From the IMG/VR virus record IMGVR_UViG_3300023047_000002: a stretch of DNA of 64,000 nt, one strand, 5' to 3'. Made by a program: the position numbers and the translations under genes. The DNA comes from a virus (lineage: Duplodnaviria; Caudoviricetes). Under the pieces are notes generated by a model. That model saw nothing but the letters and a program-made list of their open reading frames with translations, had not been told where the DNA came from and did no database searches. Shown one piece after another: positions 1 through 57,046 of the stretch. Each line of letters begins with the position of its first letter. Positions within the stretch are counted from its first letter, which is position 1.

Positions 1-600
1 CATAAAGACGAATGGTGCGTGTTCCTCGACACGGATGAGTTCCTGATGTTTAAAGACGGGTATACACTCAACAACTGGATATCCGACCTGGAAACGAAAG
101 CACGTGAAACCGGCGATTGGTTTTCATACATCGTGTTGCGAAACTTCAATGCAAGTGGTCACATCTATGCTCCAAACGTACCTACAGTACAAGCATATAA
201 ACAATGGGAATACAGAGACAACGACATGCTGTGCAAGTCAGTGGTCAATGTCTCAAGACCTTATAAATTCTTCTGTATCCAACGTGCGATGAGATACGAA
301 CAAACACAGCCTAGCAAACCACATGCACAGGAATTAGATACAGGTAATGTGTGGATAAATCATTATTTCACAAAGTCATGGGAAGACTGGCTGATTCGTA
401 TGAGACGTGGGTCACAAGACCCGAACCTTCGCAAACTTGAACAGTTCTTTGACATCTACAATAAAGATATGATGCGTTACAAATCACTTCTCATAGACTC
501 ATTCTATATGTGTCAGGATGAGTGGATGCAGGGTGGAACTGAGTTCATACCACAAGAGATTGCTCCTTGTATTGATGTTCTGAAAAGCTCTCTTCCGTGA
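1..600 (+). CDS. Glycosyltransferase (GT92/DUF23- or GT2-like), 5' truncated by window edge
   Basis: Frame is open from position 1 (HKDEWCVFLDTDEFL); DxD-type LDTDEFL motif and C-terminal INHYFTKSWED motif. Confidence 0.7.
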   Translation, partial: HKDEWCVFLDTDEFLMFKDGYTLNNWISDLETKARETGDWFSYIVLRNFNASGHIYAPNVPTVQAYKQWEYRDNDMLCKSVVNVSRPYKFFCIQRAMRYEQTQPSKPHAQELDTGNVWINHYFTKSWEDWLIRMRRGSQDPNLRKLEQFFDIYNKDMMRYKSLLIDSFYMCQDEWMQGGTEFIPQEIAPCIDVLKSSLP

Positions 601-736
601 GCTACCCACAGCTCGAATCTGTTAAATGTCAGTTGGTAGTTCACCTCTCCTGAAAAATCTCCGATGAAGTCTGTGCAGTCATGTTAGGCGAAATTGACTC
701 CCTTGAGTGTTATGCACGATGACATAGATCAGAAAT

Positions 737-785
737 AAAAGACAAAAACCACAAGCCAAATAAAGGCTTGTGGTTTTTGTCTTTT
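737..785. terminator. Long bidirectional hairpin terminator
   Basis: AAAAGACAAAAACCACAAGCC ... GGCTTGTGGTTTTTGTCTTTT perfect inverted repeat. Confidence 0.8.
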
Positions 786-788
786 TCA

Positions 789-829
789 TGGTGCTGTTTT
801 AATCCCTTGGTTTTCTTTTGTGGTAGTGT
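789..829 (+). promoter_or_regulatory. TGGTGCTG-box promoter upstream of 878
   Basis: TGGTGCTG, 27 nt, then TG-g-TAGTGT. Confidence 0.65.
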
Positions 830-877
830 CGCTATAAGACAAAATGGGTTTGTCTTATATTATAGCAGAGGATTGAA

Positions 878-1369
878 ATGGCACTAATATGGAAAAAGAA
901 ACGAATGATACGGTCTGAAAGGATTCATCGAATCATCGAGATGGCTCTTAAAAAAGCTAAATACCAAGATCGTGTCGCTGATTTGCTGCCACAGATTGCA
1001 CAGAATTGGTGTCTTTGTACATATTGCCGAATGTACGACCCAGACAACATAAATTACCGTGGGTGGCGTAAAGAACTCATCGCTCATATAGGAATGCTTA
1101 AATCGATTCCTGTAAAAGGCGATAAGGAAAAATGGACACGAGATGAAGTCATAAATACAAGCGAGTATAACAATGTGGATGTAATTCGCTGTGTATGTGA
1201 CTTCAAACTTGACGATGAGGATGAAATTGACTTCACGCAATCAATAAGAAAAGATCTGTATCGTGATTGTGCAGAGAATGCAGAAACAATCGTGTCGCTT
1301 ATCTCAAGTGATTCGTTGCCCTCAGAAAAGCTCTATAAGATATTCCCACTTAAAACAGATCGATTCTGA
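878..1369 (+). CDS. Hypothetical protein, paralog of 1394..1903
   Basis: RBS GAGG; shares EMA..KxxYQxRVxxLxxQIAxNWCLCxYC with the next gene. Confidence 0.8.
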   Translation: MALIWKKKRMIRSERIHRIIEMALKKAKYQDRVADLLPQIAQNWCLCTYCRMYDPDNINYRGWRKELIAHIGMLKSIPVKGDKEKWTRDEVINTSEYNNVDVIRCVCDFKLDDEDEIDFTQSIRKDLYRDCAENAETIVSLISSDSLPSEKLYKIFPLKTDRF

Positions 1370-1393
1370 CAGAAAATGAGGTGAACATTAATT

Positions 1394-1903
1394 ATGATAC
1401 GCATAAGTCATGCAGTTAAAAAACAACGCTTTATTCTTGAGATGGCTTTTAACAAAAGTCAATTTCAGACACGTGTGTTAAACCTTGCAAAGCAGATTGC
1501 TGAAAACTGGTGTCTCTGTCAATATTGCCATAAATATGAAAAGACTTTTCCTACGTATGTCCACTGGAAAAGCGAGCTTGAAGGATATCTTGACGAGTTA
1601 AACACAATGTCCATTGACAATGATAGATCACGTGAGAAGTGGAGCCTTGAAATTCTCAGAAAGGGAGACTTTGATGACGCTCAAAAAGTTTTCCGACAAT
1701 GCAAAAGGAAATTCATGATAGAGCATGTGCTGAACATGCCAAAAAATTCGCAGATAGAAGTGTGTGATGACTTTGCCAACATGATTGAGGATATCTCAAA
1801 ATGTATCGGAAGCGTTGACGGCATTGTCCCGTTCACATGCAAATGGTTTCCTGAAGTGTTGACAACCTTCGACATCCGATGGAGATCCGAACACAAATAT
1901 TAA
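1394..1903 (+). CDS. Hypothetical protein, paralog of 878..1369
   Basis: RBS GAGGTG; QIAENWCLCQYC motif. Confidence 0.8.
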   Translation: MIRISHAVKKQRFILEMAFNKSQFQTRVLNLAKQIAENWCLCQYCHKYEKTFPTYVHWKSELEGYLDELNTMSIDNDRSREKWSLEILRKGDFDDAQKVFRQCKRKFMIEHVLNMPKNSQIEVCDDFANMIEDISKCIGSVDGIVPFTCKWFPEVLTTFDIRWRSEHKY

Positions 1904-1916
1904 AGGATGTGAATCA

Positions 1917-2525
1917 ATGGCACGACAAAATAAAACAATCAAACCTAATACAGAAGAGAAAAAGCAACAAGAGCAACAGGAACTTGAAGAGCTCAAGCTC
2001 AGAATGGATAAGATGAAAGCCGAAGAAGAGCGACTAAAAGCAAACACGGTTCCAACGGCTGAGTATCTTGAAAACATTCGCAAAACGCATAAAGACCCGT
2101 ATTGGATGTCGTATGAAGTGGTACAGATAAAGCTCGGATCACCCATACAGACGATTTTCACTAGCGAACATTACTACGAGGCATTCGACGTTTTCAAGGA
2201 ATACTTCGAGAAAGATAAACACGCCAGAATGGATTTGGTCGTTCGTGAGGTACGTGATGGCACACCTATTTTCAGAACAATCGTAGCTGAATTTGAGGTA
2301 GCGGGAGCACATGGGGATGTGACATCTGATGGAAGACAAACACTTTCATCGTTTGCTAGTCCGACCGATTATGGACGTTTTGGCCCTAGTGTGTACAATC
2401 AAACGTACAAAGATGCTAAATGGGCAGGATATGAGGCATACTCTCGCCCCCTAAAGACTTTCAGTTATGGAGATTGTAGCAGTGGTTTTGACCAGAAAAG
2501 CGAGCCGAAAGCCCACCCGCTTTAG
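1917..2525 (+). CDS. Hypothetical protein; stop codon lies inside an IS605-like hairpin
   Basis: 202-aa ORF with N-terminal coiled coil. Confidence 0.7.
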   Translation: MARQNKTIKPNTEEKKQQEQQELEELKLRMDKMKAEEERLKANTVPTAEYLENIRKTHKDPYWMSYEVVQIKLGSPIQTIFTSEHYYEAFDVFKEYFEKDKHARMDLVVREVRDGTPIFRTIVAEFEVAGAHGDVTSDGRQTLSSFASPTDYGRFGPSVYNQTYKDAKWAGYEAYSRPLKTFSYGDCSSGFDQKSEPKAHPL

Positions 2526-2541
2526 CGGGTGGGTAGTTGAC
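2500..2541 (+). repeat. IS200/IS605-end-like palindrome (left-end/right-end hybrid)
   Basis: GCGAGCCGAAAG-CCCACCCGC-TTTA-GCGGGTGGG-TAGTTGAC. Confidence 0.75.
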
Positions 2542-2741
2542 TAAAGGTGGTGTGAACTTTCTTTATATGCAACAGTTTGAGAACCCATCCCTGAAGTATG
2601 AGACCCTAACGTATCTAAAACAGGTGATGTTTCTTTAGGCAAAGGTTGTGCTTGCGTCGTATCGTTTTCGTATAACAAAGCAAAAAGTACAGCGCAAACA
2701 ATGATAGTGAACACCATATAGATGCTTTTTATTATGTTCAT
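2541..2741 (-). CDS. Small membrane-anchored protein
   Basis: Hydrophobic helix IYMVFTIIVCAVLFALLY; start codon uncertain (2741 or 2762). Confidence 0.5.
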   Translation of the reverse strand: MNIIKSIYMVFTIIVCAVLFALLYENDTTQAQPLPKETSPVLDTLGSHTSGMGSQTVAYKESSHHL

Positions 2742-8684: not shown

Positions 8685-9299
8685 TCATACGGATTCCGTT
8701 ATCATGTCATGCGGAAACCTACAGTTAAATTCGACCCCTAAAAATTCACCTTCGTTACCGTTGTAACGCACATAGCTCTTATAGTTAGCTGGGTACACGT
8801 CTTGTAGATTATACGTCCGAACAGTTTCACCGGTTTCTCCATTGATTGCAAACAAACGTGCCTTTCCTACGTGATCCATTGGTTTGTCATGGTAGTCATA
8901 AAACCACTTCTTCAATTGAGAATCTTGCTCACAGATAGCTTTGAACTTCATATAACTGAACAAGTGACCGTATAATTTACAAGTTTGACCAGTTCCTTGT
9001 ACGTCATACACATCATAAATAATCGAATTGTCCATCCCGTCTTTTTCAAACTTAACACAAAACACAGTCTGATGACTGTATCTTACATTAGACGGAGTAT
9101 ACGTCTCTTTCACATCGTCCAGACGACACCATGCTTTAACCTCATGTGGTTCATATTGTGAACTCCACCTATACTGATACCAATGATTGTTTCTCCATTC
9201 TGCCTCAGAGATGTTGCCCTTATCCGTCAGAATAATGTAGCTGCCGGACTCATCACCGGGTGTCTGTTTACCGTCATACCATGTAATTCCCATTGTCAC
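8685..9299 (-). CDS. Hypothetical protein
   Basis: 204-aa ORF with GGAG RBS. Confidence 0.7.
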   Translation of the reverse strand: MTMGITWYDGKQTPGDESGSYIILTDKGNISEAEWRNNHWYQYRWSSQYEPHEVKAWCRLDDVKETYTPSNVRYSHQTVFCVKFEKDGMDNSIIYDVYDVQGTGQTCKLYGHLFSYMKFKAICEQDSQLKKWFYDYHDKPMDHVGKARLFAINGETGETVRTYNLQDVYPANYKSYVRYNGNEGEFLGVEFNCRFPHDMITESV

Positions 9300-9331
9300 T
9301 CTCCAACTATCGTAGTTTGGTTATTATCCTG

Positions 9332-9898
9332 CTAGTCCCACATGTCTAAATAATTTTCAGCGAGAAGCGAGAACCCTTCTTTTCGGATTCGATTATGCTC
9401 TTTCCATAATGATTCATCTGTGTCCTCTGTCTGGCCAGTCATATCAGAAAGAGATACTTCAAAAGCCATCTTTATCTTATTCAATACCTCATGCCATGTT
9501 TCAGGAGTCATTCCTGCTTTGTAACTCGCACCTTTTCTAATCCATACGTCCAAAGCAGGAATCGCAAATTCTGCCAAAGCACACCCGAACTCCCAACATG
9601 CGTATGGCGTAGGATATCCTTCCAACATGCAGAAGACAAAATCCATCGGATACCACAAGTCTCCGTCCTGTGCGGTTATTTCATGACACGTATCGTGAAG
9701 TGTCCATTTCGGAAACCAGGCATCCTCTTCAAGGTCGTCATCAGACGGAAACGTGTACGAACAAATGACCGTTTGACCGTCACTTAAACGAACCATGAAT
9801 TTGCCGAAATAAGGATTCCTATCGTCATTGAGTTCTGTTTTTACCTTGTACGGTCTTTCCTCTGAAAACTTTTTCCACTTGAATTGCTCAAGAGACAT
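9332..9898 (-). CDS. Hypothetical protein
   Basis: 188-aa ORF; C-terminal W..VL.KI..AF...G..LL..YL.MWD pattern common in phage proteins. Confidence 0.7.
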   Translation of the reverse strand: MSLEQFKWKKFSEERPYKVKTELNDDRNPYFGKFMVRLSDGQTVICSYTFPSDDDLEEDAWFPKWTLHDTCHEITAQDGDLWYPMDFVFCMLEGYPTPYACWEFGCALAEFAIPALDVWIRKGASYKAGMTPETWHEVLNKIKMAFEVSLSDMTGQTEDTDESLWKEHNRIRKEGFSLLAENYLDMWD

Positions 9899-10213
9899 AT
9901 TACACTATCCAATAAGTTATGTTGTCGTACATCATGCAAGGAACTTGGATGTCATATTCTTTCATATCCGCACCAATCCAATCCCATGTTTCTCTCTCCC
10001 CTTGTGTATTGCGTGTGGGCAACAGACGTTGCCCACGAGTCCTTATCGTTTCAGCAGAATGGCATTCCCATATTGGGCTATGTTCTTTTCAGCAAAGTAG
10101 TTATCCTTGCCCCATGCATCTGTCATATGAAGTTTAATCGGTTCGGCTTTATACCCATTCACCATCAAAGCGGCGATAAGGCATGTTTTCGCCTCAACCG
10201 TAATAACCACTTC

Positions 10214-10251
10214 GTGAACTACCCACCCGCTTTAGCGGGTGGGTAGTTCAC
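10214..10251. repeat. Perfect palindrome made of two IS605-like right-end arms
   Basis: GTGAACTACCCACCCGC-TTTA-GCGGGTGGGTAGTTCAC (17-bp arms). Confidence 0.85.
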
Positions 10252-10255
10252 ACAC

Positions 10256-11260
10256 TTAAAATGTGTGTATTTCAAGGGGAGTTATCATCTCACGCAATTC
10301 TTCACCTTGAGTGATAGCATTAATGTATTTGTCCCCAAATTGCCTTAGCAGTTTTAAGCACAAATCCAAACATTTTATTACATCATTTGGAAATTCGTTT
10401 ATGTCATCTTCATAAAAAGCATTACCAATAGATTCAATGTAATTTTTGGATGTTTTCACAAGGTCAACAGAACTATTTGTAGTCTGCTCCAAGACACGTG
10501 TTAAAACTTTAGTGACACTCTTTTGAGTGTGTGAGTTCAAATCGATTTCATCAGGGAAAACGTTTGCATATTTTTGAAAGTCTGAATAGCTCATGGAGAC
10601 ACCAAGAATGTCTAAAACTGAGGTGTTCACTCTATCGAACAAGTCTTGATTCTTAAATCCATATATCACCTTTCGGTGCTTCGTTGTGTCTTCAAGACCT
10701 ATCTGCCTAAAATAATGAACACCGTCTTCGTCAAGTTCAAGTTGATCATGTTTATTTAAAATTTCTTCTGCATAAATATTTGGGATTGGATATCCGTTAT
10801 ATTTTTTCATCAAATATTCAACTTTGCCACTGACTTCTGCCCAATACCATCCTTCATAGTTTTTGATATCGTATCGGATCAGGGCTCTAGCGAACTCACC
10901 AGAACCCTTTATGTCCATATTTTTAGCGAGTGCAATGTTTTTATAACTACCATCTACAATTCGGAACACTTCTAATGCCATTATATCATTCTGGTGATTA
11001 GAAAGCTCAGACTCTTCGTAAGTGGTTGATGTGATTACCCTAAGTAATTTAGCACTTTTTAGAAACTTTTTTGGGTTGCTTGTTCCCAAATAACCACCAA
11101 TTGACGCATAAGCCTTTTCAATAATATCACGCATTTTAACGAAAAATGTTTCAACATCTGGCGGTGTAATATCATAGATTGCACAAATTTCCCATTGCAC
11201 ATGACTTATGGATTCCCCATAAGTCGAAGTGTGATGTCTGTTTTTTCTAATCAGTGCCAT
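10256..11260 (-). CDS. Hypothetical AT-rich protein with basic N-terminal tag
   Basis: GAGG RBS; MALIRKNRHHTSTYGES; WAEVSGKVE..GYPIPN..HYFRQIG motif. Confidence 0.8.
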   Translation of the reverse strand: MALIRKNRHHTSTYGESISHVQWEICAIYDITPPDVETFFVKMRDIIEKAYASIGGYLGTSNPKKFLKSAKLLRVITSTTYEESELSNHQNDIMALEVFRIVDGSYKNIALAKNMDIKGSGEFARALIRYDIKNYEGWYWAEVSGKVEYLMKKYNGYPIPNIYAEEILNKHDQLELDEDGVHYFRQIGLEDTTKHRKVIYGFKNQDLFDRVNTSVLDILGVSMSYSDFQKYANVFPDEIDLNSHTQKSVTKVLTRVLEQTTNSSVDLVKTSKNYIESIGNAFYEDDINEFPNDVIKCLDLCLKLLRQFGDKYINAITQGEELREMITPLEIHTF

Positions 11261-11340
11261 ATCGCTACCTCACTTCATTTAAGATAAAAGTCTCGATAGC
11301 AACCTTTCCAACCATTTCAATGTTGCTATCATCACACGAT

Positions 11341-11381
11341 CTTATAGCACACTATTTCTTACAGTATCTCTAACAGCACCA
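11341..11381 (-). promoter_or_regulatory. TGGTGCTG-box promoter upstream of 11260
   Basis: TGGTGCTG, 27 nt, then TG-c-TATAAG. Confidence 0.7.
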
Positions 11382-11400
11382 CGAAACAAAAAGTCTCCTA

Positions 11401-11422
11401 CTTTAGGCGGTGGGTAGTTCAC
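11401..11422 (+). repeat. IS605-like right-end remnant
   Basis: CTTTAGGCGGTGGGTAGTTCAC. Confidence 0.7.
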
Positions 11423-11453
11423 GTAATAATGATAGCTGCACTTTCTTTTGGTG

Positions 11454-11492
11454 TGGTGCTGGAAAAAGGACGTTCGACTTCTGTGATATAGT
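11454..11492 (+). promoter_or_regulatory. TGGTGCTG-box promoter upstream of 11561 (divergent from the 11381 copy)
   Basis: TGGTGCTG, 25 nt, then TG-a-TATAGT. Confidence 0.6.
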
Positions 11493-11560
11493 AGTGTGAG
11501 TATGTAGCAACTGTGGGTGGTACGGTTGCTGTCGAATGGAAGTAATCCTAATATCTGGAT

Positions 11561-11941
11561 GTGTTGATTATGCGAAAACGTGATCGTTCAAACGCTTTTG
11601 AAATGACAACTTTGAGAAAAGCACGTTCTGGCTTGCCGGTAAACATATACCTGGACGACAGTGGATCTTATCTTAATTGTGATTATGAACCTAGAATCCA
11701 ATTTCAACCAAATAAAGGAAACTGTCCGGACATTCGTTCTCTGATACCTATGACAATTTCAGACGAACCTACTATTCCGATAAAGAATTATCAGTCACGG
11801 TTAAATGGTGTTGGAAGTAATGACATCTCTTTGATTATGTCATTCGTCATTGCAAACAAAACAAATCTTCTCAGATTATGTGACCGTAATGATGAATACG
11901 ATATCTCCAATTTTTTGGATGACATGGTTAAAGTCTCGTGA
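11561..11941 (+). CDS. Hypothetical protein (EM..L....SGLP.NI pattern, possibly DUF4160-related)
   Basis: 126-aa ORF with basic N-terminal tag; its TGA stop lies in the palindrome arm. Confidence 0.7.
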   Translation: MLIMRKRDRSNAFEMTTLRKARSGLPVNIYLDDSGSYLNCDYEPRIQFQPNKGNCPDIRSLIPMTISDEPTIPIKNYQSRLNGVGSNDISLIMSFVIANKTNLLRLCDRNDEYDISNFLDDMVKVS

Positions 11942-11973
11942 ATTACCCACCGTCTTTAGCGGGTGGGATTCAA
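11938..11973 (-). repeat. IS605-like right-end palindrome
   Basis: GTGAATTACCCACCGTCTTTAGCGGGTGGGATTC. Confidence 0.7.
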
Positions 11974-11998
11974 AACAGAGTATCTGGTGAGGTGTTGC

Positions 11999-12982
11999 AT
12001 GTTTCGTTCATTTGAATCAGTTAAAATTGATGATCCTGTACTTGAACTTGAATGGGAAGACCTGTCATTGATTGGCGGAGCTACTGGTCTTGCCCTAAGT
12101 CTTAAAAACAGTCTTTCGAAGTTCCTAAGAAATTATGGAGAACACGACATTCTTGAAGACTTATATCATGCAGTGGCGCTTGGTCTTAGTAATCTCCAAG
12201 AAATCGGTATGTTTGACGGTTTTTTGTCAAATCCTAATATTGAGTTTCGTGGAAAGACTAATATTTCCATACAGAATAAACTTGATAGACATCACATACA
12301 TTCAGCAGGTCGTCCTCTTGAAAAGGTCTTTAACGACTTGATTGGTATTAGAATTATCGTAGAAGATTATTCAGTATGGGAATCTGTAAAACATAAGTTT
12401 GATTCATCGGTGTGTACTGTCGTTGACATGAGATGCGGAAAGTTCCCTGATGATGGTTACAGAGCTGTTCACGTTTACTTCCAAGCTGATCACTTGCATT
12501 ATCCTGTTGAACTTCAATTCGTGTCTGAGCATGACAGTCAGTTCAACGCATGGCAACACGACCATGCATATAAGTCATCATGGTTTGCTCCTTCTGTAGG
12601 AAAGAAATTGCGTGAGTTATACGATGACTGGAAAATTCAGACAGAGGATGAGTATGTGTCAGAGCTCACTAAACTGTCATCAATGGTTACGTACTCAGAA
12701 AAAAGGACGTGGGAAGGTACGAAACTTGTTGCGTGCAGATTCGGTATAAAGGGGTGTATAGGGTACATGCCTGAAACGATTCACGAGTTAATGTACCTTT
12801 ATCGTGAACTTTGTCCCTATTGTAGAAGACAGATTCCAACAGTCGATGTAACTGTCGTTAAGGGAGAGAGTTATGCTGAGTTTAGTCCATGTACGATCTA
12901 CGCTACCTATACTGATTTTTATGCGGCGATATTCCATGATTTGTTAAGAAAACCTGAACGGCACTCACGGTGTACACCATGA
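11999..12982 (+). CDS. RelA/SpoT-domain small alarmone synthetase
   Basis: ATG 11999 with GAGGTG RBS; synthetase motifs RGK..S..K, NDLIGIRII, GYRAVH, PVELQ. Confidence 0.8.
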   Translation: MFRSFESVKIDDPVLELEWEDLSLIGGATGLALSLKNSLSKFLRNYGEHDILEDLYHAVALGLSNLQEIGMFDGFLSNPNIEFRGKTNISIQNKLDRHHIHSAGRPLEKVFNDLIGIRIIVEDYSVWESVKHKFDSSVCTVVDMRCGKFPDDGYRAVHVYFQADHLHYPVELQFVSEHDSQFNAWQHDHAYKSSWFAPSVGKKLRELYDDWKIQTEDEYVSELTKLSSMVTYSEKRTWEGTKLVACRFGIKGCIGYMPETIHELMYLYRELCPYCRRQIPTVDVTVVKGESYAEFSPCTIYATYTDFYAAIFHDLLRKPERHSRCTP

Positions 12983-13082
12983 ACTACCCACCCGCTAAAG
13001 GCGGTTGGTATGAATTAGGATATTAAGGTGACATGGAGACATTAAAGACATCGTTACCACCGCCTAAAGGCGGTGGTAACGA
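12980..13082. repeat. Two IS605-like palindromes
   Basis: TGAACTACCCACCCGCTAAAGGCGGTTGGT (12980-13009) and TCGTTACCACCGCC-TAAA-GGCGGTGGTAACGA (13051-13082). Confidence 0.75.
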
Positions 13083-13233
13083 GTGCCTTCGAGACACAAT
13101 GATTAACATCATTCATCCACCAATTTATCGTTATTCACTCTTCTTCAATCTTCTTCAATCTTATTCTACTTGATGATGTGCCACGAGTCTGCAATTCTGT
13201 ACTCAGTTCTTTGTACTGTTCCGAAATGAGTAT

Positions 13234-13338
13234 TTACTTTGTGGATTCTCTTCGGTTCGCTAGCTTTAGTAGAGCAAAGAGGATCAAACATACCGTAACG
13301 GCTATCATGGATTCTATAATAGATTCTATCGTCCACAT
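13234..13338 (-). CDS. 34-aa single-TM peptide (not in the ORF track)
   Basis: AGGAGAG RBS; MWTIESIIESMIAVTVCLILFALLKLANRRESTK. Confidence 0.5.
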   Translation of the reverse strand: MWTIESIIESMIAVTVCLILFALLKLANRRESTK

Positions 13339-13431
13339 GTCTCTCCTACATTAGGCAATTAACAAATTTTAAATCTAAACACAATTTGAAACGACCCGTG
13401 ATAGAATCCACTACTCAAGCACGAATAAGAG

Positions 13432-13872
13432 TTACATGTTCTGTTTTTGTTCGGTTGCAATGGAAACTCCACCCAACGTGTTAGCCCAATTCTCAGGGAA
13501 ATGACAGTAATACCAGAGGATACTGTAATTCCCTTTCCGTCTTCTCCAATAGAGAATAACTGATGGAATAGCTACCACAAATAAGTAAAGAGGACCCAAA
13601 AACAAAGACTGAACACTGTGACCTGACTCATGCCTTAATATGTCTTCCTTAGAATCCTTGTGCGTGAAAATAAAAGGTCCCAATGACCAACACGTGTGCC
13701 AAGGATGTTTAACCCTCCACACGGTCATACCTGTATGTTCATTTTTCCAAGGTTCGATATCATGGAGTACTATTAAAACGAGCAAGGCAGCAATCACTTG
13801 TGGTAACTGCCATAAAAACAAAAGCCATACAACAGGGGAACTCAAGTTCGCATAATTGAAATCTGCTTTCAT
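13432..13872 (-). CDS. Membrane protein with HEXXH motif
   Basis: WQLPQ..SLG..LRHESGHSVQS..LGPLY..E.WA; hydrophobic helices. Confidence 0.75.
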   Translation of the reverse strand: MKADFNYANLSSPVVWLLFLWQLPQVIAALLVLIVLHDIEPWKNEHTGMTVWRVKHPWHTCWSLGPFIFTHKDSKEDILRHESGHSVQSLFLGPLYLFVVAIPSVILYWRRRKGNYSILWYYCHFPENWANTLGGVSIATEQKQNM

Positions 13873-13921
13873 AATGAAAAATCCTATTATGCCCCTGTAA
13901 GTACAACTGTTTGATAATGAT

Positions 13922-13964
13922 GCGAGCCGCAAACCCACAGGCTAAATCCGCGTTGGTAGTTCAC
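13922..13964 (+). repeat. Degenerate IS605-like left-end/right-end hybrid palindrome
   Basis: GCGAGCCGCAAACCCACAGGCTAAATCCGCGTTGGTAGTTCAC. Confidence 0.6.
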
Positions 13965-14028
13965 CGCATAGAAAAAGAGCTCACAGAATACTTTCCATGA
14001 GCTCTATCAGATGTATCAACAAACTAAC

Positions 14029-14366
14029 GTCAACTACCCACCGCCTTTAGGCGGTGGGCTTGTAACTGACCCGTAGCTCTTGGTCGAGTGTTTGACACTC
14101 TACTACGTTTTTTACCAACTTTCTTTTCAGAAGATTGGCTGTCGTTACATCGTGGGGTGATTGACTGCACCCCGTAGGCTTGAATCATGTTCAAGACCCA
14201 CTTAAACTTGAATCTTGGTGTTTAAGTTCAGAGAGTGCCTTCAGTCCAAGTACCAAACGGTTTTCTCTCAAAACCTTAAATACAAAATATCACTTAACAA
14301 AGCAAGCAAGATTTTTAGTTGGCTCGCTTACCCACGGGCTTTAGCCCGTGGGCTTCCGCTCGCCTT
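14029..14366 (-). mobile_element. Non-autonomous IS200/IS605 element (PATE-like), 338 bp, no ORF
   Basis: Target CCAT, then left-end hairpin GGAAG-CCCACGGGCT/AGCCCGTGGG; right end CAAG-CCCACCGCC-TAAA-GGCGGTGGG-TAGT-TGAC. Confidence 0.8.
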
Positions 14367-14374
14367 ATGGTGAA

Positions 14375-16339
14375 CTAATCTCTGATAAGTTCGACCGTAA
14401 GGTTCTCAGGCACAAAGTTGCTCGGTGTAACGACCGAACCGTCCTTGACATCCAAACGATAATTCATAGCAGAGATAATGCCTTCAAACTCATTCGGGAG
14501 CGAAGCACATCCAAACCCTTCATGGAACACCTTATCTCCCCAAGGTGACACTGTAACTGACTCGTCATTCTCAGGATTTTTGTACGTGAGTTGTACACGT
14601 GCATTGACATCCTCATCGAAGTTCAGAACTATCCACGGATGATGGGTGCCACTTGCATAGATAGCACCAAGGATATTGTGTTCTGCATTCACAAGAATTT
14701 TCTCATGAATCTGGACTTTGACATTTGCAGACTTCGTGAGATCTTTATCTGCAAACAACTCATACATGGTATCTCCTGCAGCTGCATCGCCTTGGACATA
14801 GAAGGTACGACCAATCCACTCAGCAACACTGTTTTCGATGACACGAACTTTAATGAACGTGTCTGTGCCATTACCGTCTTCCCAAACCTTGGCGGCTTTA
14901 CCATCGGCAAGTTTATTTCCATCCATGTCATAAGACGTAAAGGTGCAGCCAATATTGTTCCAGTTACCGGGTGCATTATTGACGGTATCCCATATATCCT
15001 CATCAGGATATTTCTCATAATATTTCTTCAAGCCACCATGTTCAAGAGATTCGTTGAATGCGGCAGCCTGTTCTTCTGCAGTTCCAAGTCCAATACACTC
15101 TGCACGTTTGTCGCCACCAAGCCAGTCAATAACTTCATGCGAGGAAAGAATGTCGCTTGCCTTTACGAAGTAAGCACCCTCAATGAAGTCCTCATTGTCC
15201 GCAGGACGTTCAGGAACGATGATAATATTTCCGTCTCTATCTTCATTGTACGACAGACACTCATAATAAACATCATCGCCATTACTGAATGCTTTGAGAC
15301 GAATAGCGAGGTCACCGATTTCACCATCTTCATTGAGGTCAGAACCACCCATAACAAGACCACGAGGTTTATCCGATTCATCCGCTTCAAAGTCAGCAAT
15401 AGGCATCGCAAGGTCGCTTTCAGGAACAACCAGAGTTGCGATTTGAACTTCAGGAGTTCCAATCTTGTTATATCCTGCAAGAGTCGGATCGCCATTGGCA
15501 TCAACAGGATACTGACAAATGTATTTCTTAATACCACTTTCCGTAAAAGAGCTGCGAAGATTTACAGGCAGAATGCTCTTTTCGCCAGTGTCTTCATCTG
15601 TAAGAATTGCCAGGGCAAGACCGATACGGACGATTTCAGTTGCATCGTCAAAGAGTCTTCCTTCGATATTGTATTCTACACCATCGACCATAACGGTACA
15701 GAACAACGGTGAGTCACCGAGTAACTCATGGTTCTTTTTCTCTTTTGCAACCGCACATCGAGTGCCTTCAATCAATGTATGGGTTTCACCGATTTTGGAA
15801 TCCAATGTTGGATGAAGAACCAAAACATGACCACTCTTGACAACGTACTGAGTACGCGGGTCATGCACAATGTCCTGACTCTCGACCACTTCTTCTGACG
15901 GAACAGGAAGCAAACTGCTTGTCCATACCCATTTCGATACAGGAGAGCGTTCCAGGAAATTACGTCCATGTGCATCGCCATCAAGTTTCTTCACCTGTGT
16001 GGTATCAAGTCGAACACGATAATAAACCTTTCCGTTTTTATCCGTGTAGCTGAACTTTGACATCACATCTATTTTGTGACCAAGACTTACGGTATCATCG
16101 CCAAAAGTCTCTTTCAGATACGGCAGAATCATTACCTCTGCATTACCCGGACAAACACGACCAACATGAAGGTACTTTGTTTCCGTACCCTCCCCACTTG
16201 CCAGTTCAAAGTCCTTAACATCCTCAGCAAATGATTCCGATATTGGTGCGACATTAGACGTTCCAAGACGTACTTCATGTTCAAAACTCCGAACAAAAAG
16301 AATTTTTTTCAATGCTTTCATACTTATACCGATGCTCAT
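14375..16339 (-). CDS. Acidic hypothetical protein, probably structural
   Basis: 654-aa ORF downstream of the tape measure gene; GGAG RBS. Confidence 0.7.
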   Translation of the reverse strand: MSIGISMKALKKILFVRSFEHEVRLGTSNVAPISESFAEDVKDFELASGEGTETKYLHVGRVCPGNAEVMILPYLKETFGDDTVSLGHKIDVMSKFSYTDKNGKVYYRVRLDTTQVKKLDGDAHGRNFLERSPVSKWVWTSSLLPVPSEEVVESQDIVHDPRTQYVVKSGHVLVLHPTLDSKIGETHTLIEGTRCAVAKEKKNHELLGDSPLFCTVMVDGVEYNIEGRLFDDATEIVRIGLALAILTDEDTGEKSILPVNLRSSFTESGIKKYICQYPVDANGDPTLAGYNKIGTPEVQIATLVVPESDLAMPIADFEADESDKPRGLVMGGSDLNEDGEIGDLAIRLKAFSNGDDVYYECLSYNEDRDGNIIIVPERPADNEDFIEGAYFVKASDILSSHEVIDWLGGDKRAECIGLGTAEEQAAAFNESLEHGGLKKYYEKYPDEDIWDTVNNAPGNWNNIGCTFTSYDMDGNKLADGKAAKVWEDGNGTDTFIKVRVIENSVAEWIGRTFYVQGDAAAGDTMYELFADKDLTKSANVKVQIHEKILVNAEHNILGAIYASGTHHPWIVLNFDEDVNARVQLTYKNPENDESVTVSPWGDKVFHEGFGCASLPNEFEGIISAMNYRLDVKDGSVVTPSNFVPENLTVELIRD

Positions 16340-16410
16340 CGTTCGTCTCCTACAAAGCCCCTTTAACAAACCACAAAAATTTTAACGTTACACGTTAGAT
16401 GTTGACAACA

Positions 16411-19400
16411 CTAAACTCCAAAACCGACAGCAGGACGGAAAGGCATAGCTGCATTTCGAAGTTCGTTTGTCCGACTGGTTCTATTCTGTTCCTTAACTTC
16501 ACGAGTCAATTCTCTTACCTCACGAGATAGTTCCTGCATGGATTCAGTAACCGCAATAGAATCAGCCTCATTCTTGCTAATAATTGATTGTTCCCTAAGG
16601 TAATTCAACTGCTGCATTGCAGTCAATTCCTTTAACGTTGCGTAATTATGTTCTATGGATTTGATGTAATCCTCGAATCCATCTTCAAGAGAACCGAACG
16701 CTGTAGGCATTCCGTCTCTTACACGGAATGTTCGTAACGGATTTATAGTTTCAATATCACCATCCTGCGTAACATCTACAAAGTTTTTACCAAGCAATTT
16801 TCTCATCACTGGATTCGTAAACAATGAACCTGCTTTGCTACTTAAAATGCCACGGACAAGAGCATCCTTTAAGATACCATTTCGACTTTGATGCCTGTAC
16901 TTGTTTTCCAAGAGGCCGAACGAAGAGATCATATTGAGCAAACTCAACGATTTTAAACTACTTTCGTCACTTCCACCAGAAGACATTACAGAAGACTTAA
17001 CAAGAGGAATCTGTGAAGTTGAAATTTCATCTCCTATGGGGTCTGTTTCACTTGCAACGCCGCTCGGAACAAAGTCCAACGCTTTTGAATAGTTTCCAAA
17101 GAGCGATTTAAAATACCCTGCGTATTTAAAATTCTTTTTCGGAATTTTGTTGTTCACAACGCCTGTGTTCTTAGTTCTCGTTGCTAGAAATACCTCTGGG
17201 TTATCATATTTCCCAGCACTGCCAGAGGCATTCCAGTATTTTCCATCCCCTGATGCAATTCCGACATGACCTGGTTTTTCTTTAACACCTGTGAATACAA
17301 TCATGCCAGGTTTAATGTCATCAAATCCTACACTTACCCAATCATCATCTTCAAGCAACCCTTTCACGTGTCTTGCAGCCCGAGTTACGTTTCCTTTTTT
17401 GTCACGCTTTTCTTTCAAATCATACCCGAATACGATTGAAGATACACCGTAAGAGAATCGGTTATACAAATCGTTTCTGCCGATTGATTTAAAAGCATTT
17501 GACACGAGCTGGTTACAAACAAATCCGTCCCATACATGTCCGTCACGAGGGTCTTTTTTTCCATGTAATTCATATTTCTTACCCTCATTCGAGGAAGCGA
17601 ACCTAAGCATACGTTCAATAACAGACTTTGCACCGTCAGAAAGTTCTTCATTAGTTTCACCTGTCGAAACTTTTCGTTCACTGGAAGCAAGACTATCTGC
17701 CATCGCCTTGAATGACTCACGAACATCTTGGGACACATCTGCACGTTTTGACATCGCACCAGCAAGGTATTTAACACGTTCAGGATTGTTCGCAGGTAAA
17801 ATGACCTCCACATTTCCGCCCTCTCCGACATGTGTTACTGTGTCCTTGTCAATAATGTTTCCGTTTGAATTGTAAAACACCTGACCTGCATTGGCTGCCG
17901 AAATAACATCAGCACGTGTTGAAGCTGTATTCTTATCAGACAACGTTCCTGCAATAGCCTCACCACCGGCTTTACCTGCGAAGGCTCCGCCTGTTATTCC
18001 TGCACCTATGGCCAGAGGGTTTCCGCCAGATGCAAGTCCTGCAGCAACACCACCACTAACTGCTCCTACGGCTGTTCCAACAGTTCCGTACTTAGCTACG
18101 TTCTCCTTATATCGTGCTTCAATAAGCTCACCTGCAATCTTCTGCTGTTGATTAGCAAGAGATGTTGCACGATTACCATACACTCTTTGTGACGAATCAT
18201 CTCCCTCGACTTGAGCCATCGAAGATCGTTGACGATTATCTTTAAGTTCCTTTGTAACGCGGTCGAGCTCTTCTTGTTTTTCTCTTCTGTCTTCTTCCTT
18301 ACAGACCGTCTTTTTTATTCCTTTAACCAACTCCACAACAGTCGTCACCAAACCAACGATAATAGCTAGAGGGCCTGCTACTTTTAACAGACCGCTACCT
18401 AGTTTAGTCACGCCGCCCTTTAAAAGATTACCTAACTTTCCTCCGGTTCCTTTCAGAAGATTGCCAATCTTTGTGTTACTTAAAAGGTTACTGACGGACT
18501 GTGCGGTCAGTAGGAAGATTACTGCATTGAAACCTTTGGTAATTATTTCTGCTGTAGAACCCTTACCATTAAATACCCACATAGAGCCGACAGCTCCTGT
18601 AAACTTCGACCCTATCCATGTCTCAACATTATCTTTCCACTGTTCCAACATAGGAGTTTCAAAACCTTTTTTGGCTTGTTCCGTGTCGGTAACCATGACA
18701 CCTTCTTTTCCATTGATGATCCTATCTAGCTTCATCACGTTGTCCATTGCTTTCTGGTCACCCGTGATTCCTGCTTGCTGCATGTCATGCTGAATACGTG
18801 CATCAAACGCACGTTTAACGTCTGTATTCCCATTTGCTATATCGTTACGTATTGCACGCACCATTTCCGCCATGGACATATTTTCATTGACAGACGCACC
18901 TGCATGAGAACCTATGTTGTACAGGTCTTTAAACAGCTCATCTTTTCCACGCATGTCGATACCCTGAATGTCTTTTCGGATATCATCCATTGCTGCCTTT
19001 TGTGATTCTTGCTGCGAAATACCCAAAGCCATATTCTGCTGGACTGCTTCTCCATATTCTTTCATTAGCTTTGAGGTTTCTGCATTATTCATCCCCTGCT
19101 GGCGTGACAGGGAAACCAGATACTTGAAGTCCTCATTCATCTTGGAAACATCAACACGATACGTGTTATCGCCTGAGGACATCTTCATAAACTGGTCCAT
19201 TATCTGCTTCTGTGACTCACTGTCCATGTCCATGGCATCAAGAGTCATCAAGGTGTTTTGGTCAACTTTCATACCGAACTTGTTCAAACCGACGACCATA
19301 TCCCGAGTCGTCGAATTCAAGTGTTCAGCATTGACGCCATTGTTCAACACCTGCTCTTTAATTGCCTTTACAGACTCCTCCATAGAAATGTGAACATCAA

Positions 19401-20178
19401 GACTGTCACGCACGGAATTACGGGCGTCCACAGTATTGTCCATAATGGCAACAGAAGTGTCTCGCGACATGTGATAATTACGACGCATTTCATCATTGAA
19501 TTGCTCAAACTTGGACAAACTGTTGGTTAAAAGACCTTGTATTTTCTTTAAAATCTCGACGATGACTGCATTCCTAGTTGCAACCATCTGTAAAGCAAGA
19601 GCCTCCTGTTCCTGTGATGTCTGACCTGTTTGGTTATCTGCTTTTGCTCCAAGACCAAAAGTATTTTGGTCAGAACTGTCATTACGCTGCATACGTAATG
19701 AATTGTCCAACGCCTGTTTGAAATTCTCTGCCTGTGTACCAATAGGTGTTCTACTCTGGTCATACTTACTTCCGCTACTTCCATTCCCCTTGCCTGAGTC
19801 AGCCATCGCAGGTAACGCATTGGTACCATTCTGAGAAGGTAATGGCGTACTTGGAGGTTGTGCAGGTTGTGGATTTGGTGTCTGTGTGCCAGGCTGAGAT
19901 TGCTGTGAGCTCCTGTTGCTTATCAGCTTGGAAAGCTCTCCCATAGCAGACGCCAGTGCGTCATTCGTTTTTTGTGTCTCTTTAATCGAGCGAAGAACAC
20001 CATTCAAAGCCTCTGCGGTCTTGCCCCAGAGTTTGGCCATGTTCTCGTCGGACTTCTTCTGCATCTCATGCAGACGTGTGTTTAGTACATCAATCCCATG
20101 ACGGACATCGTTGTCTGTTACCAGCACGGCATTTGTCTGTGTCACTGTATTCACTGTCGAAGAAGTCACTGTCGGCAT
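16411..20178 (-). CDS. Tape measure protein with C-terminal NlpC/P60-like peptidoglycan hydrolase domain
   Basis: Helical N-terminal half and Gly/Ala-rich hydrophobic stretches; DGFVCNQLV (Cys) and PGHVGI (His); lies downstream of sheath and tube. Confidence 0.8.
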   Translation of the reverse strand: MPTVTSSTVNTVTQTNAVLVTDNDVRHGIDVLNTRLHEMQKKSDENMAKLWGKTAEALNGVLRSIKETQKTNDALASAMGELSKLISNRSSQQSQPGTQTPNPQPAQPPSTPLPSQNGTNALPAMADSGKGNGSSGSKYDQSRTPIGTQAENFKQALDNSLRMQRNDSSDQNTFGLGAKADNQTGQTSQEQEALALQMVATRNAVIVEILKKIQGLLTNSLSKFEQFNDEMRRNYHMSRDTSVAIMDNTVDARNSVRDSLDVHISMEESVKAIKEQVLNNGVNAEHLNSTTRDMVVGLNKFGMKVDQNTLMTLDAMDMDSESQKQIMDQFMKMSSGDNTYRVDVSKMNEDFKYLVSLSRQQGMNNAETSKLMKEYGEAVQQNMALGISQQESQKAAMDDIRKDIQGIDMRGKDELFKDLYNIGSHAGASVNENMSMAEMVRAIRNDIANGNTDVKRAFDARIQHDMQQAGITGDQKAMDNVMKLDRIINGKEGVMVTDTEQAKKGFETPMLEQWKDNVETWIGSKFTGAVGSMWVFNGKGSTAEIITKGFNAVIFLLTAQSVSNLLSNTKIGNLLKGTGGKLGNLLKGGVTKLGSGLLKVAGPLAIIVGLVTTVVELVKGIKKTVCKEEDRREKQEELDRVTKELKDNRQRSSMAQVEGDDSSQRVYGNRATSLANQQQKIAGELIEARYKENVAKYGTVGTAVGAVSGGVAAGLASGGNPLAIGAGITGGAFAGKAGGEAIAGTLSDKNTASTRADVISAANAGQVFYNSNGNIIDKDTVTHVGEGGNVEVILPANNPERVKYLAGAMSKRADVSQDVRESFKAMADSLASSERKVSTGETNEELSDGAKSVIERMLRFASSNEGKKYELHGKKDPRDGHVWDGFVCNQLVSNAFKSIGRNDLYNRFSYGVSSIVFGYDLKEKRDKKGNVTRAARHVKGLLEDDDWVSVGFDDIKPGMIVFTGVKEKPGHVGIASGDGKYWNASGSAGKYDNPEVFLATRTKNTGVVNNKIPKKNFKYAGYFKSLFGNYSKALDFVPSGVASETDPIGDEISTSQIPLVKSSVMSSGGSDESSLKSLSLLNMISSFGLLENKYRHQSRNGILKDALVRGILSSKAGSLFTNPVMRKLLGKNFVDVTQDGDIETINPLRTFRVRDGMPTAFGSLEDGFEDYIKSIEHNYATLKELTAMQQLNYLREQSIISKNEADSIAVTESMQELSREVRELTREVKEQNRTSRTNELRNAAMPFRPAVGFGV

Positions 20179-20212: not shown

Positions 20213-20319
20213 AAACACGTCCATAAAGGGGTCTATTTTGCGTTATACGCTATTTTCTAACACAGACGTGTATTTACCAGGGTAAGGTCGTAACTTTTTA
20301 GTACGGCGTAAATTTGAGG
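20213..20319. repeat. 107-bp intergenic element, copy 1
   Basis: 94/107 identical, ungapped, to 31973-32079. Confidence 0.9.
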
Positions 20320-20406
20320 GGTATATAGACGAAAAATAAAAGGGGATTAACCTAACTGGAAAATCCCCTTGACGAAACCGAACCGTACTCTGAAAAGAAT
20401 CAATCA

Positions 20407-30747: not shown

Positions 30748-30837
30748 GTGAACTACCAACCGCCTAAAGGCGGTTGGCTTCAGGTTTCATCAAACAAGAC
30801 TTAGCTTTCTTCGTAATTGAATACTTACCATGGCACT
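30748..30837 (-). mobile_element. Partial TnpB-type omegaRNA/right end overlapping the 3' end of 30790..31254
   Basis: GAAGAAAGCTAAGTCTTGTTTGATGAAACCTGAAGCCAACCGCCTTTAGGCGGTTGGTAGTTCAC aligns with 56889-56954. Confidence 0.75.
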
Positions 30838-31972: not shown

Positions 31973-32079
31973 AAACACGTCCGTAAAGGGGTCTAGAATG
32001 CGTTATACGCGATTTTTTATTATAGACGTGTACTTACTAGGGTAAGGTCGTAACTTTTCAGTACGACGTAAATTTGAGG
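31973..32079. repeat. 107-bp intergenic element, copy 2
   Basis: Ungapped match to 20213-20319. Confidence 0.9.
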
Positions 32080-32189
32080 CCCATATAAAGAAAAATCCCC
32101 GTGACGGAGAACACAGGGATTTTTCTTTAAACACGCAAGAGGACTGCATACTAAATTAGATATGCATCTCACGTCTTGTTCTGTTCCGA

Positions 32190-42164: not shown

Positions 42165-43622
42165 CTAATAACCCTTGATTTCACCACGAACGAGGAGTTC
42201 AGGACGGAGCATCTTATAAGCCCACATACTGATGAAGCCTGATTCGACAGTGAACGTATTTCTAGTCAACCAGTCTGTATGCATGATCGGTAAGTAGTCT
42301 GCGAGCAGTGCACAACTGTTCTCTAATATACTCTTATGACCAACTAAGTACTCGTTTTCACGAATATAAGGTGAACAAATAATCTTGAGTGAGTTATCAA
42401 GAACACCTGCAACGTAAGGACCGTTAGGATTCTCAACATAGTTCGGTTCGAAACGAGGACGACCAATGTTCATAAGAACGTTGAGACCTTCAATACCGAC
42501 AACCGCCCAGTTACCACGGAATTTGTAGCTCTTCTGGTAAATCTTGTTGGCACATTTCTGAAGCTCACCGCAGAAGCTCTCATCGTGTTCACGCTGTGAA
42601 ATGTAATTCGTGTTGGTGCGATCCCACATTGTGCGGTTACCGGCCTGACGCAGAAGGTTGTCAATAACCTCATTGTCACGTTCCTGTTTCATTTCCATTG
42701 TGCAGTTGTCAATAAGGGTCTTCTGAAGGTCAATACCGAAGCTGTTCTGATACATGTAACCTGCATCGAACGAATACTCAACACGGAGTTTGTGAGGAAG
42801 AGCATGAATCGGTTCGTTTCTCATACGGAACACAGGGCGACCAGCCAAAGAAGGAGCAGAACCCAAATCCTGAGTGTAATCAACGAACACACTTGAGAGT
42901 TTGGAAAAAGCATCATTCTCGGATGCAAACATCACAAGACCGCTGTCCGGATTAACTTCGAGGGTACCGGCCTTGAGAAGGTCACTACCGATAGGATAAC
43001 CCTGAGCGTCCAAAGCACGAAGTTCCCATGTGCTCGTGCCTGTTTTGCGAAGTGCATAACGTTTGCTCGAATCACCTGCATCAGTGAAGATAATCTGATT
43101 GTCAGCATCAATGAGCATAGGCATATGTGCAACATGCAATTCGACTTTTCCGCCCACGATCGTAGCGGGTTCACCACAGATACGACCAGAAGCAAAACGG
43201 TTGCGACTTGTGTGATTGACGGAAACGCCAAGGTCGTTAATCATCACGTTGCCCTGGAGATTGTCACCACGGCTGTCACCATAGGTCATTTCCCAGAAAG
43301 TAATCTGACCCTGAGGACTGTCGATAGGCTGCACCCAAATAAGGTCTTCAATAATCGAGGAAGCACTCATCTTGGCAATCATGTTAATCATGTGTTCGGG
43401 GAACCAAGAAATTCCGGACGGCTGAGAAATACCGCTGCGGATGATTCCTTCGTTCACACGTTTCTGACCCTCTTCAAGAACGCGGGCGGCGTTGTTGAAT
43501 GTCAAAAGAAGGGTGTCTTCCTGTGCCGAGGTAAGTTTACCACGAACATCAGTGACTTTCTTAACGTAGGATTCATAATTGCGTTTGAGAATGTTACGAT
43601 CTTCTTTAGTCAAAACTGCCAT
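42165..43622 (-). CDS. Major capsid protein (T4 gp23-like)
   Basis: VQPIDSPQGQI, HKLRVEYSFD, E...ERDNEVI, GNWAV, GP..AGVL, YLVGHK, YLP motifs; follows the protease gene. Confidence 0.92.
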   Translation of the reverse strand: MAVLTKEDRNILKRNYESYVKKVTDVRGKLTSAQEDTLLLTFNNAARVLEEGQKRVNEGIIRSGISQPSGISWFPEHMINMIAKMSASSIIEDLIWVQPIDSPQGQITFWEMTYGDSRGDNLQGNVMINDLGVSVNHTSRNRFASGRICGEPATIVGGKVELHVAHMPMLIDADNQIIFTDAGDSSKRYALRKTGTSTWELRALDAQGYPIGSDLLKAGTLEVNPDSGLVMFASENDAFSKLSSVFVDYTQDLGSAPSLAGRPVFRMRNEPIHALPHKLRVEYSFDAGYMYQNSFGIDLQKTLIDNCTMEMKQERDNEVIDNLLRQAGNRTMWDRTNTNYISQREHDESFCGELQKCANKIYQKSYKFRGNWAVVGIEGLNVLMNIGRPRFEPNYVENPNGPYVAGVLDNSLKIICSPYIRENEYLVGHKSILENSCALLADYLPIMHTDWLTRNTFTVESGFISMWAYKMLRPELLVRGEIKGY

Positions 43623-47052: not shown

Positions 47053-47105
47053 TGAACTAACCAACCTCCTAAAGTCGTGTTGGCTTCAAACTTCAACGAA
47101 CAAGA
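47053..47105 (-). repeat. Degenerate IS605-like right end/omegaRNA 3' part
   Basis: TCTTGTTCGTTGAAGTTTGAAGCCAACACGACTTTAGGAGGTTGGTTAGTTCAA resembles 56902-56954. Confidence 0.65.
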
Positions 47106-56545: not shown

Positions 56546-56705
56546 TGAGACTCCCAGCTCGTCGTCTGATAAAACAAACAGATTAAGACAGTATGTTTGA
56601 TTTATAATGATACGCAAACCACACGTTGATTTAGATGGTTTTGTAGTTCACGACAGGATGCATCTTCTTTGTCAAAGCCTATTTAACGCTTTTACGATTT
56701 ACCAT

Positions 56706-56954: not shown

Positions 56955-56974
56955 TCGTAAACAGACAGAAAAAG
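56811..56974 (+). ncRNA. Putative TnpB-type omegaRNA (reRNA) scaffold plus flank-derived guide
   Basis: 5' hairpin ATTCCTA-CGGAACA-TAGGAAT and GCAAGCGGAGA resemble tnpB 3' tails; scaffold ends at right-end TCAC; guide would be TCGTAAACAGACAGAAAAAG. Confidence 0.55.
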
Positions 56975-57046
56975 TTCAGATTTTAATCAACATGGCGTCA
57001 CATAGAACGTAGTATTTAAAACCAAACAATTTTGATGCGTAGAGTG

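Follow-up and report, generated by a model that had tools for sequence, protein, structure and literature searches.

Hairpins at the gene boundaries of a phage accessory island are probably ends of one IS200/IS605 transposon family in various stages of decay

The stretch of 64,000 nucleotides analysed here (the window) stems from the IMG/VR virus record IMGVR_UViG_3300023047_000002 (Duplodnaviria; Caudoviricetes) and contains, at positions 10214-14371, an island of accessory genes that are separated by GC-rich hairpins. The relation of these hairpins to insertion sequences (IS) of the IS200/IS605 family, and to the genes between them, is the subject of this analysis. The window covers a phage structural region with a GC content of 42.5%, which encodes a Gp23-type capsid protein (42165-43622), a prohead protease and a tail sheath protein. 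The source is a large uncultured myovirus, and the island is a hypervariable accessory locus inside its structural gene block.

The island genes lie in mixed orientation, as the original prediction had described. An accessory open reading frame (ORF) of 334 residues (10256-11260, minus strand) has a 93% identical homologue in other assemblies. It is followed on the plus strand by a 126-residue ORF that belongs to a phage-only protein family (11561-11941) and by a gene with a RelA_SpoT domain (11999-12982; Pfam E 1.3e-8), whose product resembles a small alarmone synthetase. Two membrane genes are located on the minus strand, namely a 34-residue ORF with a single helix (13234-13338) and a multi-pass ORF (13432-13938), which is conserved at 85% in the relative introduced below and probably starts near 13873 (Met-23). 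The hydrophobic segments of the latter and its HESGH motif (HExxH) suggest a small membrane metalloprotease-like protein. For the 334-residue and the 126-residue proteins no function was obtained from PHROGs, PADLOC, NCBIfam and the ESM Atlas, and IMG/VR searches with the RelA-like protein, the 334-residue protein and an alignment of RelA-like homologues gave no matches. The island core (10500-12500) has a GC content of 36-39%, lower than the 41-45% of the adjacent structural genes and in keeping with acquired DNA.

Inspection of the sequence confirmed that all palindromes predicted between the island genes exist. At 11401 only the right half of a hairpin and its tail are present, the hairpins at 11938-11967 and 12979-13008 are imperfect with mismatched arms, and the one at 13922-13964 is degenerate, likewise with mismatched arms. 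The hairpins form a GC-rich family with the shared core CCCAC-SSSC-TWWA-GSSS-GTGGG, for which 8 matches were found in the 64-kb window versus 0.00 expected by chance. The motif of the adjoining tail, allowing for up to 3 mismatches, gave 11 matches versus 0.07 expected, and looser scans yielded about 16 hairpin units, 8 of them in 10214-14371. The stems stay paired by means of compensatory variants (CCCGC, CCGCC, GGGC, GGTC). Two types of flank surround the core, which are either GTGAACTA / TAGTTCAC or GCGAGCCGAAAG and its complement. The ordinary bidirectional terminators of this phage (26620, 29587, 51294) are flanked by an A-run and a T-run, and the hairpin family differs from them. The notion that the hairpins are ordinary intrinsic terminators was rejected, because they lack a T-run and the phage possesses terminators of its own.

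A search with the exact core pattern retrieved further members of the family, flanked in the same way, from four additional phage records of IMG/VR. Two of these phages, G005 (252 kb) and G004 (42 kb), are otherwise unrelated and have GC contents of 37% and 52%, respectively, at the locus in question. They share a unit of 1,853 bp with 97% identity (L074 4456-6308 in G005, L075 5658-7510 in G004), both limits of which lie exactly at family hairpins. This unit encodes a Y1 transposase TnpA of 134 residues (PF01797, E 1.5e-33; NF033573, 113 bits with a cut-off of 55) and, divergently from tnpA, a TnpB of 423 residues (PF07282 and PF01385; NF040570, 186 bits with a cut-off of 100). The other two phages, G002 and G003, contain TnpB-only units that are bounded by the same hairpins. 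In all four phages, a TnpB with OrfB_IS605/TNB domains points at the right end. Because the intact and the TnpB-only units are bounded by family hairpins, the TAGTTSAC flank can be assigned to the right end as its tail on the tnpB side, and the GCGAGC flank to the left end on the tnpA side. In the window itself, positions 14029-14173 are 92% identical to the tnpB-proximal right end of the intact element.

The right-end motif matches at least 80 IMG/VR stretches, with many in contigs of more than 200 kb among the matches listed, and Y1 transposases are present in 104 deposited phage records. The presence of an element of this family in a phage is thus no novelty on its own; the island is unusual in its density of copies and in the range of their decay states. 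A scan of bacterial genomes with the hairpin core gave scattered single matches with unrelated flanks and no host with a matching repeat family. Single copies of the same core occur in Gammaproteobacteria, Magnetococcales, Nitrosospira and others (L014, L028, L032, L044-L046, L051, L056, L057, L067, L070). Their flanks, for example CAGTCC..AATTCGAA-hairpin-TTGTTGAGT, resemble integron attC centres and are unrelated to the flanks of the phage family.

The bases next to the hairpins provide a further means of classification. For IS608 it is reported that the four bases preceding the foot of the hairpin contact the cleavage site by base pairing (positions 1:2, 2:1 and 4:4). The left ends found here show five combinations of guide and motif (AAAG/TTAC, CAAG/TGAC, GAAG/TCAC, GAAA/TCAT and CAAA/TGAT), and the predicted motif precedes every left end. 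At dozens of loci, the right ends have one of two forms, CAAG-hairpin-TAGTTGAC and GAAG-hairpin-TAGTTCAC. This covariation of guide and cleavage site supports both the IS200/IS605 assignment and the element boundaries. Together with the intact elements that elsewhere combine exactly these ends with TnpA and TnpB, it supports the identification of the hairpins as subterminal ends of the IS200/IS605 family (IS605 group: Y1 TnpA and the RNA-guided nuclease TnpB), which the original prediction had correctly recognized.

When scored by this rule, the copies in the window differ. The ends of two gene-less elements of 343 bp and 252 bp, as well as the units at 30748 and 57190, reach 3/3. The hairpins that adjoin genes (10214, 11401, 11938, 12979) and the one at 13051 score 0-2/3 and, judged by their guides, look dead. 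Furthermore, the four hairpins that separate the three genes 10256-11260, 11561-11941 and 11999-12982 are all of the right-end type and have no left-end partner. Due to the mismatched guides and the missing partner, the gene-adjoining hairpins would not be excisable by TnpA. That the genes are cargo between a left and a right end was rejected, as no such pair brackets any of them.

The 343-bp element (14029-14371, minus strand) has one hairpin per end (14037-14058 and 14331-14352); its left end follows TTCAC and carries the guide GAAG, and its right end is CAAG-hairpin-TAGTTGAC. It keeps the last 42 codons of tnpB (residues 382-423, 14173-14048) with 88% identity, and its minus-strand RNA folds far better than shuffled sequences (z = -5.3). 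A gene-less copy of 14029-14273 (245 nt) with 91% identity is located elsewhere in G005, at 224.5 kb. In the 252-bp element (56703-56954, plus strand), TTTAC precedes the left end, whose guide is AAAG; the right end reads GAAG-hairpin-TAGTTCAC. Both elements contain no protein gene and possess both ends, and they are classed with the gene-less elements known as PATEs.

A second class comprises minis in which a left-end flank, a single hairpin and a right-end tail are fused. The 49-nt unit at 13919-13967 (plus strand) is inserted after TTGAT, and its guide CAAA predicts TGNT. The unit at 2503-2541 (plus strand) consists of the outer flank of a left end, GCGAGCCGAAAG, a hairpin and the right-end tail TAGTTGAC; a 94% identical copy exists at another locus of G005. 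Similar minis recur in other phages and occur twice, with different flanks, in one 224-kb contig.

The remaining copies in the island are remnants. A perfect palindrome of 38 nt with a right-end tail on both sides occupies 10214-10251 (unstranded); its guide ACTA scores 0/3, so it should not be cuttable by TnpA. At 11401-11422 (plus strand), there is only a right arm with the tail TAGTTCAC, the left arm being replaced exactly at the loop. The truncated right end at 11938-11975 (minus strand; guide GAAT, 2/3) consists of the tail GTGAATTA followed by arms of two variants, and the solo right end at 12979-13010 (minus strand; guide CATA, 2/3) has the chimeric arms CCCACCCGC and CCAACCGCC. The latter is the first part of a wreck that extends to 13221. 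It is followed by a perfect palindrome of 14+14 nt (13051-13082, minus strand), whose right arm continues into tnpB-internal sequence, and by a tnpB pseudogene fragment (13072-13221, minus strand) that spans residues 211-257, is 74% identical to intact TnpB and contains an in-frame stop. The two tnpB fragments of the window (13221-13072 and 14173-14048) were found by tblastn with E values of 8e-17 and 7e-16. The statement that the window lacks tnpA and tnpB is thus valid for intact genes but not for fragments. Among the 46 main ORFs of the window, no Y1_Tnp, OrfB_IS605, integrase or other recombinase domain was detected, and Rfam gave no match above threshold in 9500-15000.

Outside the island, a degenerate hairpin with a disrupted centre and a right-end tail on both sides is located at 597-644 (unstranded). 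Right-end remnants are found at 30748-30812 (minus strand), where the GAAG/TCAC pairing is intact, and, in degenerate form, at 47053-47105 (minus strand). At 57163-57265 (minus strand), a left-end remnant with a 24-nt insert in its loop abuts the tail of a chimeric hairpin that combines a right and a left end. The left end 57190-57221 immediately follows the tail that belongs to the right end at 57222, and this arrangement shows a tandem insertion with a right-end tail as its target. In the intergenic region homologous to window 56600-57330, the relative introduced below has a short family unit of its own (L135 760-802), the TTTAAA loop of which is expanded; the region is thus an insertion hotspot in both phages, although its contents differ. 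A further feature of the intergenic regions is a repeat of 87-125 nt with 79-86% identity (20213-20337, 31973-32096 and 57047-57133), which is also found in related phages (L001 4254-4356, L147 5710-5812) and may be a promoter or leader.

A megablast search with 9000-16000 and a tblastn search with the 664-residue protein encoded in the flank gave no match among deposited phages. In IMG/VR and JGI metagenomes, the 664-residue protein was found in one relative only (same contig; L001), with about 90% nucleotide identity. The 343-bp and 49-bp units are absent from this relative and their flanks are conserved. The segment 9967-13446, which contains all three presumed cassette genes, is replaced by 1.3 kb without a family hairpin; at the island position, the relative carries a gene for an N6/N4 DNA methylase (L001 12596-13351; PF01555, E 5e-30). 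One breakpoint of this swap, 9966, is the start codon of a conserved small gene, the other, 13446, lies inside the 3' end of the membrane gene, and neither is at a family hairpin. Another assembly encodes a RelA-like protein with 95% identity. Its gene is preceded by 37 open codons, and its sequence departs from that of the window at 12 nt ahead of the ATG; this copy is therefore devoid of the 11938 hairpin. A different picture emerges for window 592-2558, which is replaced by about 100 bp in L001: both breakpoints are 5-17 nt from family units, namely 5 nt (591/592) from the degenerate hairpin at 597-644 and 17 nt (2558/2559) from the mini at 2503-2541. The whole record of the relative (98.6 kb) contains 2 copies of the right-end type; the 64-kb window contains 11 matches to the related tail motif.

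These results bear on the proposal that the hairpins are attC-like or TnpA handles for the movement of single-gene cassettes. The 343-bp and 49-bp units show plain presence or absence of the elements themselves, an outcome that the original prediction had named as contrary to it, and in this one relative the breakpoints of the swapped gene block lie off the hairpins. The expectation that breakpoints coincide with hairpins is favoured by the block 592-2558, which has units at both borders, but not by 9966 and 13446. With hairpins that score 0-2/3, no left end, no recombinase in the window and breakpoints elsewhere, the proposal finds no support for the island genes.

The comparison also bears on a regulatory role. 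The hairpins could have been domesticated in the manner of bacterial REP sequences and kept to protect the 3' ends of mRNAs or to insulate transcription units. Their intergenic position, mostly at gene 3' ends, the compensatory variants in their stems and the perfection of some palindromes are in line with this idea. However, L001 keeps the same flanking genes, which encode proteins of 664 and 168 residues, without hairpins. A T-run is lacking and the phage has its own terminators, and the stem variants track the transposon subfamilies of other phages. Such a role is therefore considered highly improbable. With REP sequences and their RAYT (TnpA-REP) enzymes the hairpins do share several features, as both are GC-rich palindromes of only about 35-45 nt, dispersed over intergenic positions, that go back to substrates of Y1 transposases. 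In contrast to those systems, no RAYT gene was seen, and the only Y1 transposases found are inside tnpA/tnpB elements bounded by the same hairpins. Because the same ends bound ordinary tnpA/tnpB elements, the hairpins of the window are to be regarded as IS ends and not as a REP/RAYT system.

Several hairpins bear signs of copying or exchange between arms. In 13051-13082, the left flank TCGTTA repeats the tnpB-derived TAACGA in inverted form; this palindrome has therefore been lengthened by copying across the hairpin, that is, by a template-switch correction. By the same fold-back copying, a right end would become a perfect palindrome such as the one of 38 nt at 10214. The copies of G005 and G004, which are 97% identical, differ in the left-end loop, with TTTA in the former and TAAA in the latter. 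Hairpin-driven template switching thus appears to be visible in three forms, which are flips of the loop, perfection of palindromes and chimeric arms. The chimeric arms are most evident in the hairpins 11946 and 12987, which combine two well-formed stem variants and whose own arms match in only 7/9 and 6/9 positions, respectively. The inner right arm of 11946 and the left arm of 12987, both facing the RelA-like gene, are perfectly complementary (9/9), and the two chimeras are reverse complements of each other in 20/22 positions.

This pattern could also be the trace of an exchange of cassettes centred on the hairpins, similar to that of integrons or of promoter/stem-loop (PeSL) cassettes: a gene with a hairpin on either side would be cut out, or made circular on a single restored hairpin, and inserted by breakage and joining into the loop of a resident hairpin, leaving chimeric hairpins behind at its borders. 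In agreement with such an exchange, the right arm of 12987 is the well-formed variant CCAACCGCC that is found at 30756 and in the right end of G005, the right arm of 11401 matches the left arm of 11946 in 8/9 positions, the hairpins at 11401, 57190 and 57230 and in L115 are broken or expanded exactly at the loop, and family units lie at both breakpoints of the block 592-2558. However, the stem variants that take part in these arm matches are the two most frequent ones, the probability of such a pattern by chance is roughly estimated at about 0.1, and a simple flip of one imperfect hairpin would explain the 20/22 pattern equally well as a crossover in the loop. Moreover, no recombinase is encoded in the window, the island genes are in mixed orientation, the breakpoints of the gene swap in L001 do not lie in hairpins, and the open upstream frame of the RelA-like homologue leaves no room for the stop in the hairpin's loop. 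An exchange of this type is thus unlikely. The related idea that hairpin loops act as break-and-join sites, by way of nicking, cruciform cutting or template switching, and that dead IS605 ends would thereby form an integrase-free, integron-like cassette platform, is regarded as similarly doubtful.

PeSL cassettes of T4-type phages are proposed drivers of modular shuffling (PMC2839356, PMC4122927), and like the hairpins of the island they are repeated stem-loops that border accessory genes in hyperplastic regions of large myoviruses. In contrast, a PeSL is a phage regulatory motif composed of an early promoter and a terminator, whereas the hairpins of the window are transposon ends without a T-run. 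With integron attC sites the hairpins have in common that they are imperfect palindromes at cassette borders, and the chimeric ones resemble hybrid attC sites. They differ in that the 46 main ORFs of the window include no IntI or Phage_integrase domain, that by inspection the ends GTGAAC/GTTCAC do not fit the cores R'' RYYYAAC and R' GTTRRRY, that some palindromes are perfect and without extrahelical bases (for example 10214), and that the genes lie on both strands.

The position of the hairpins at gene boundaries has a correlate in the right-end tail. In the stretches L081-L155, the TGA of the tail G-TGA-AC ends an ORF of at least 60 codons in 14/57 family tails, compared to 99/1,402 other GTGAA sites (p = 6e-5). 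The end of a converging ORF falls within -12 to +6 nt of 19/52 right ends of the TTCAC type, versus 4.4% of random positions. Two genes of the island are examples: the TGA stop codons of the 126-residue ORF (11939-11941) and of the RelA-like gene (12980-12982) each lie inside the right-end tail of the unit that follows. The tail, in its reverse complement G-TGA-AC, thus often provides the neighbour that converges on it with a stop codon. Only those insertions would persist that fall into intergenic DNA or the final codons of a gene, which would place the hairpins at gene boundaries.

With an insertion at a gene end, the 3' end of the neighbour would become the guide of TnpB. It is conceivable that a TnpB whose gene lies in another part of the genome is led by right-end guide RNAs to cut alleles of co-infecting relatives that lack the element, and that repair then copies the element together with adjacent accessory genes, so that both would accumulate jointly. 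Each right end indeed abuts the 3' end of a neighbouring gene, the 343-bp element keeps its strongly folding scaffold beside the right end, and the changes at both empty sites of the relative fall precisely on the recognition motif or on the target bases that come first. A comparison of L001 11975-12060 with window 13919-14372 shows TTCTCTAT in place of TTCAC and AAT in place of CGC, the first target bases; the window-type target is TTCAC-GTTAGTTTGTTGATAC, as opposed to the TTCTCTAT version of the relative. The relative also has an extra TnpB gene of its own that is absent from the window (L001 8279-9958; 559 residues with HTH, OrfB_IS605 and TNB domains); this gene is located between homologues of the window genes 16411-20178 and 14375-16369. 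On the other hand, the window contains no intact TnpB, the solo hairpins at 10214, 11401, 11938 and 12979 keep no guide-RNA scaffold, and cutting and homing are putative here. The changes at the empty sites could reflect escape from TnpB cutting or, equally, imprecise loss of the element. TnpB-guided homing with co-conversion is accordingly given little weight as an explanation of the island.

In the reading that is preferred and considered probable, the island was hit repeatedly by one IS200/IS605 family, the palindromes are left-end and right-end hairpins of this family in all stages of decay, and the genes turn over by ordinary recombination. The stages would be represented by the well-formed gene-less elements of 343 and 252 bp, the fused minis of 45-49 nt, the deleted copy with a tnpB fragment and the solo right ends. 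The three island genes would not be transposon cargo; gene content would turn over by ordinary recombination in conserved flanks, as in other hyperplastic regions of phages, and the hairpins would add local instability by fold-back template switching. Some observations do not fit easily. The eight units in 4.2 kb are explained only by appeal to a permissive region, and the block 592-2558 with family units on both sides is unpredicted if the copies merely decay. The chimeras of well-formed variants at 11946 and 12987 are poorly explained by random decay, and the two empty sites of L001 deviate at the junction by 3-5 nt from exact empty sites. In addition, the window is without an intact tnpA or tnpB, and only one close relative was present in the collections searched.

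The closest known counterparts are IS608 from Helicobacter pylori and ISDra2 from Deinococcus radiodurans, the reference elements of the IS200/IS605 family (Karvelis et al. 2021, PMC8612924). Like them, the present family combines a TnpA of the Y1 type with a TnpB and has a subterminal hairpin at either end. A four-base guide pairs with the cleavage site, insertion is predicted to take place behind a short motif, and tnpB is directed towards the right end, where a structured RNA region is located. In contrast to these elements, the family described here is carried by phages, has TTSAC-like motifs at both ends and is represented in the window only by decayed or gene-less derivatives. Gene-less elements that are mobilised in trans have been described as PATEs and in the ISGst network (PMC3119063; Meers et al., PMC10055086). 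The 343-bp and 252-bp units resemble them, as they possess both ends and the guide-RNA region, are located at different loci in different genomes and display presence/absence polymorphism. The 45-49-nt fused forms with a single hairpin, the solo right ends and the very high density in one phage locus distinguish the present case.

The pairing of guide and cleavage site provides a test at the level of single bases, by which hairpins that a transposase could still cleave are separated from dead ones, and for the island it speaks against the movement of the genes as cassettes by a transposase. The empty sites of the relative are altered exactly where TnpB would read, which fits ideas of TnpB as a homing nuclease that shapes the competition between phages. 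More generally, one IS605 family is widespread in uncultured and often very large phages, where the tail of its right end often serves as the stop codon of the neighbouring gene.

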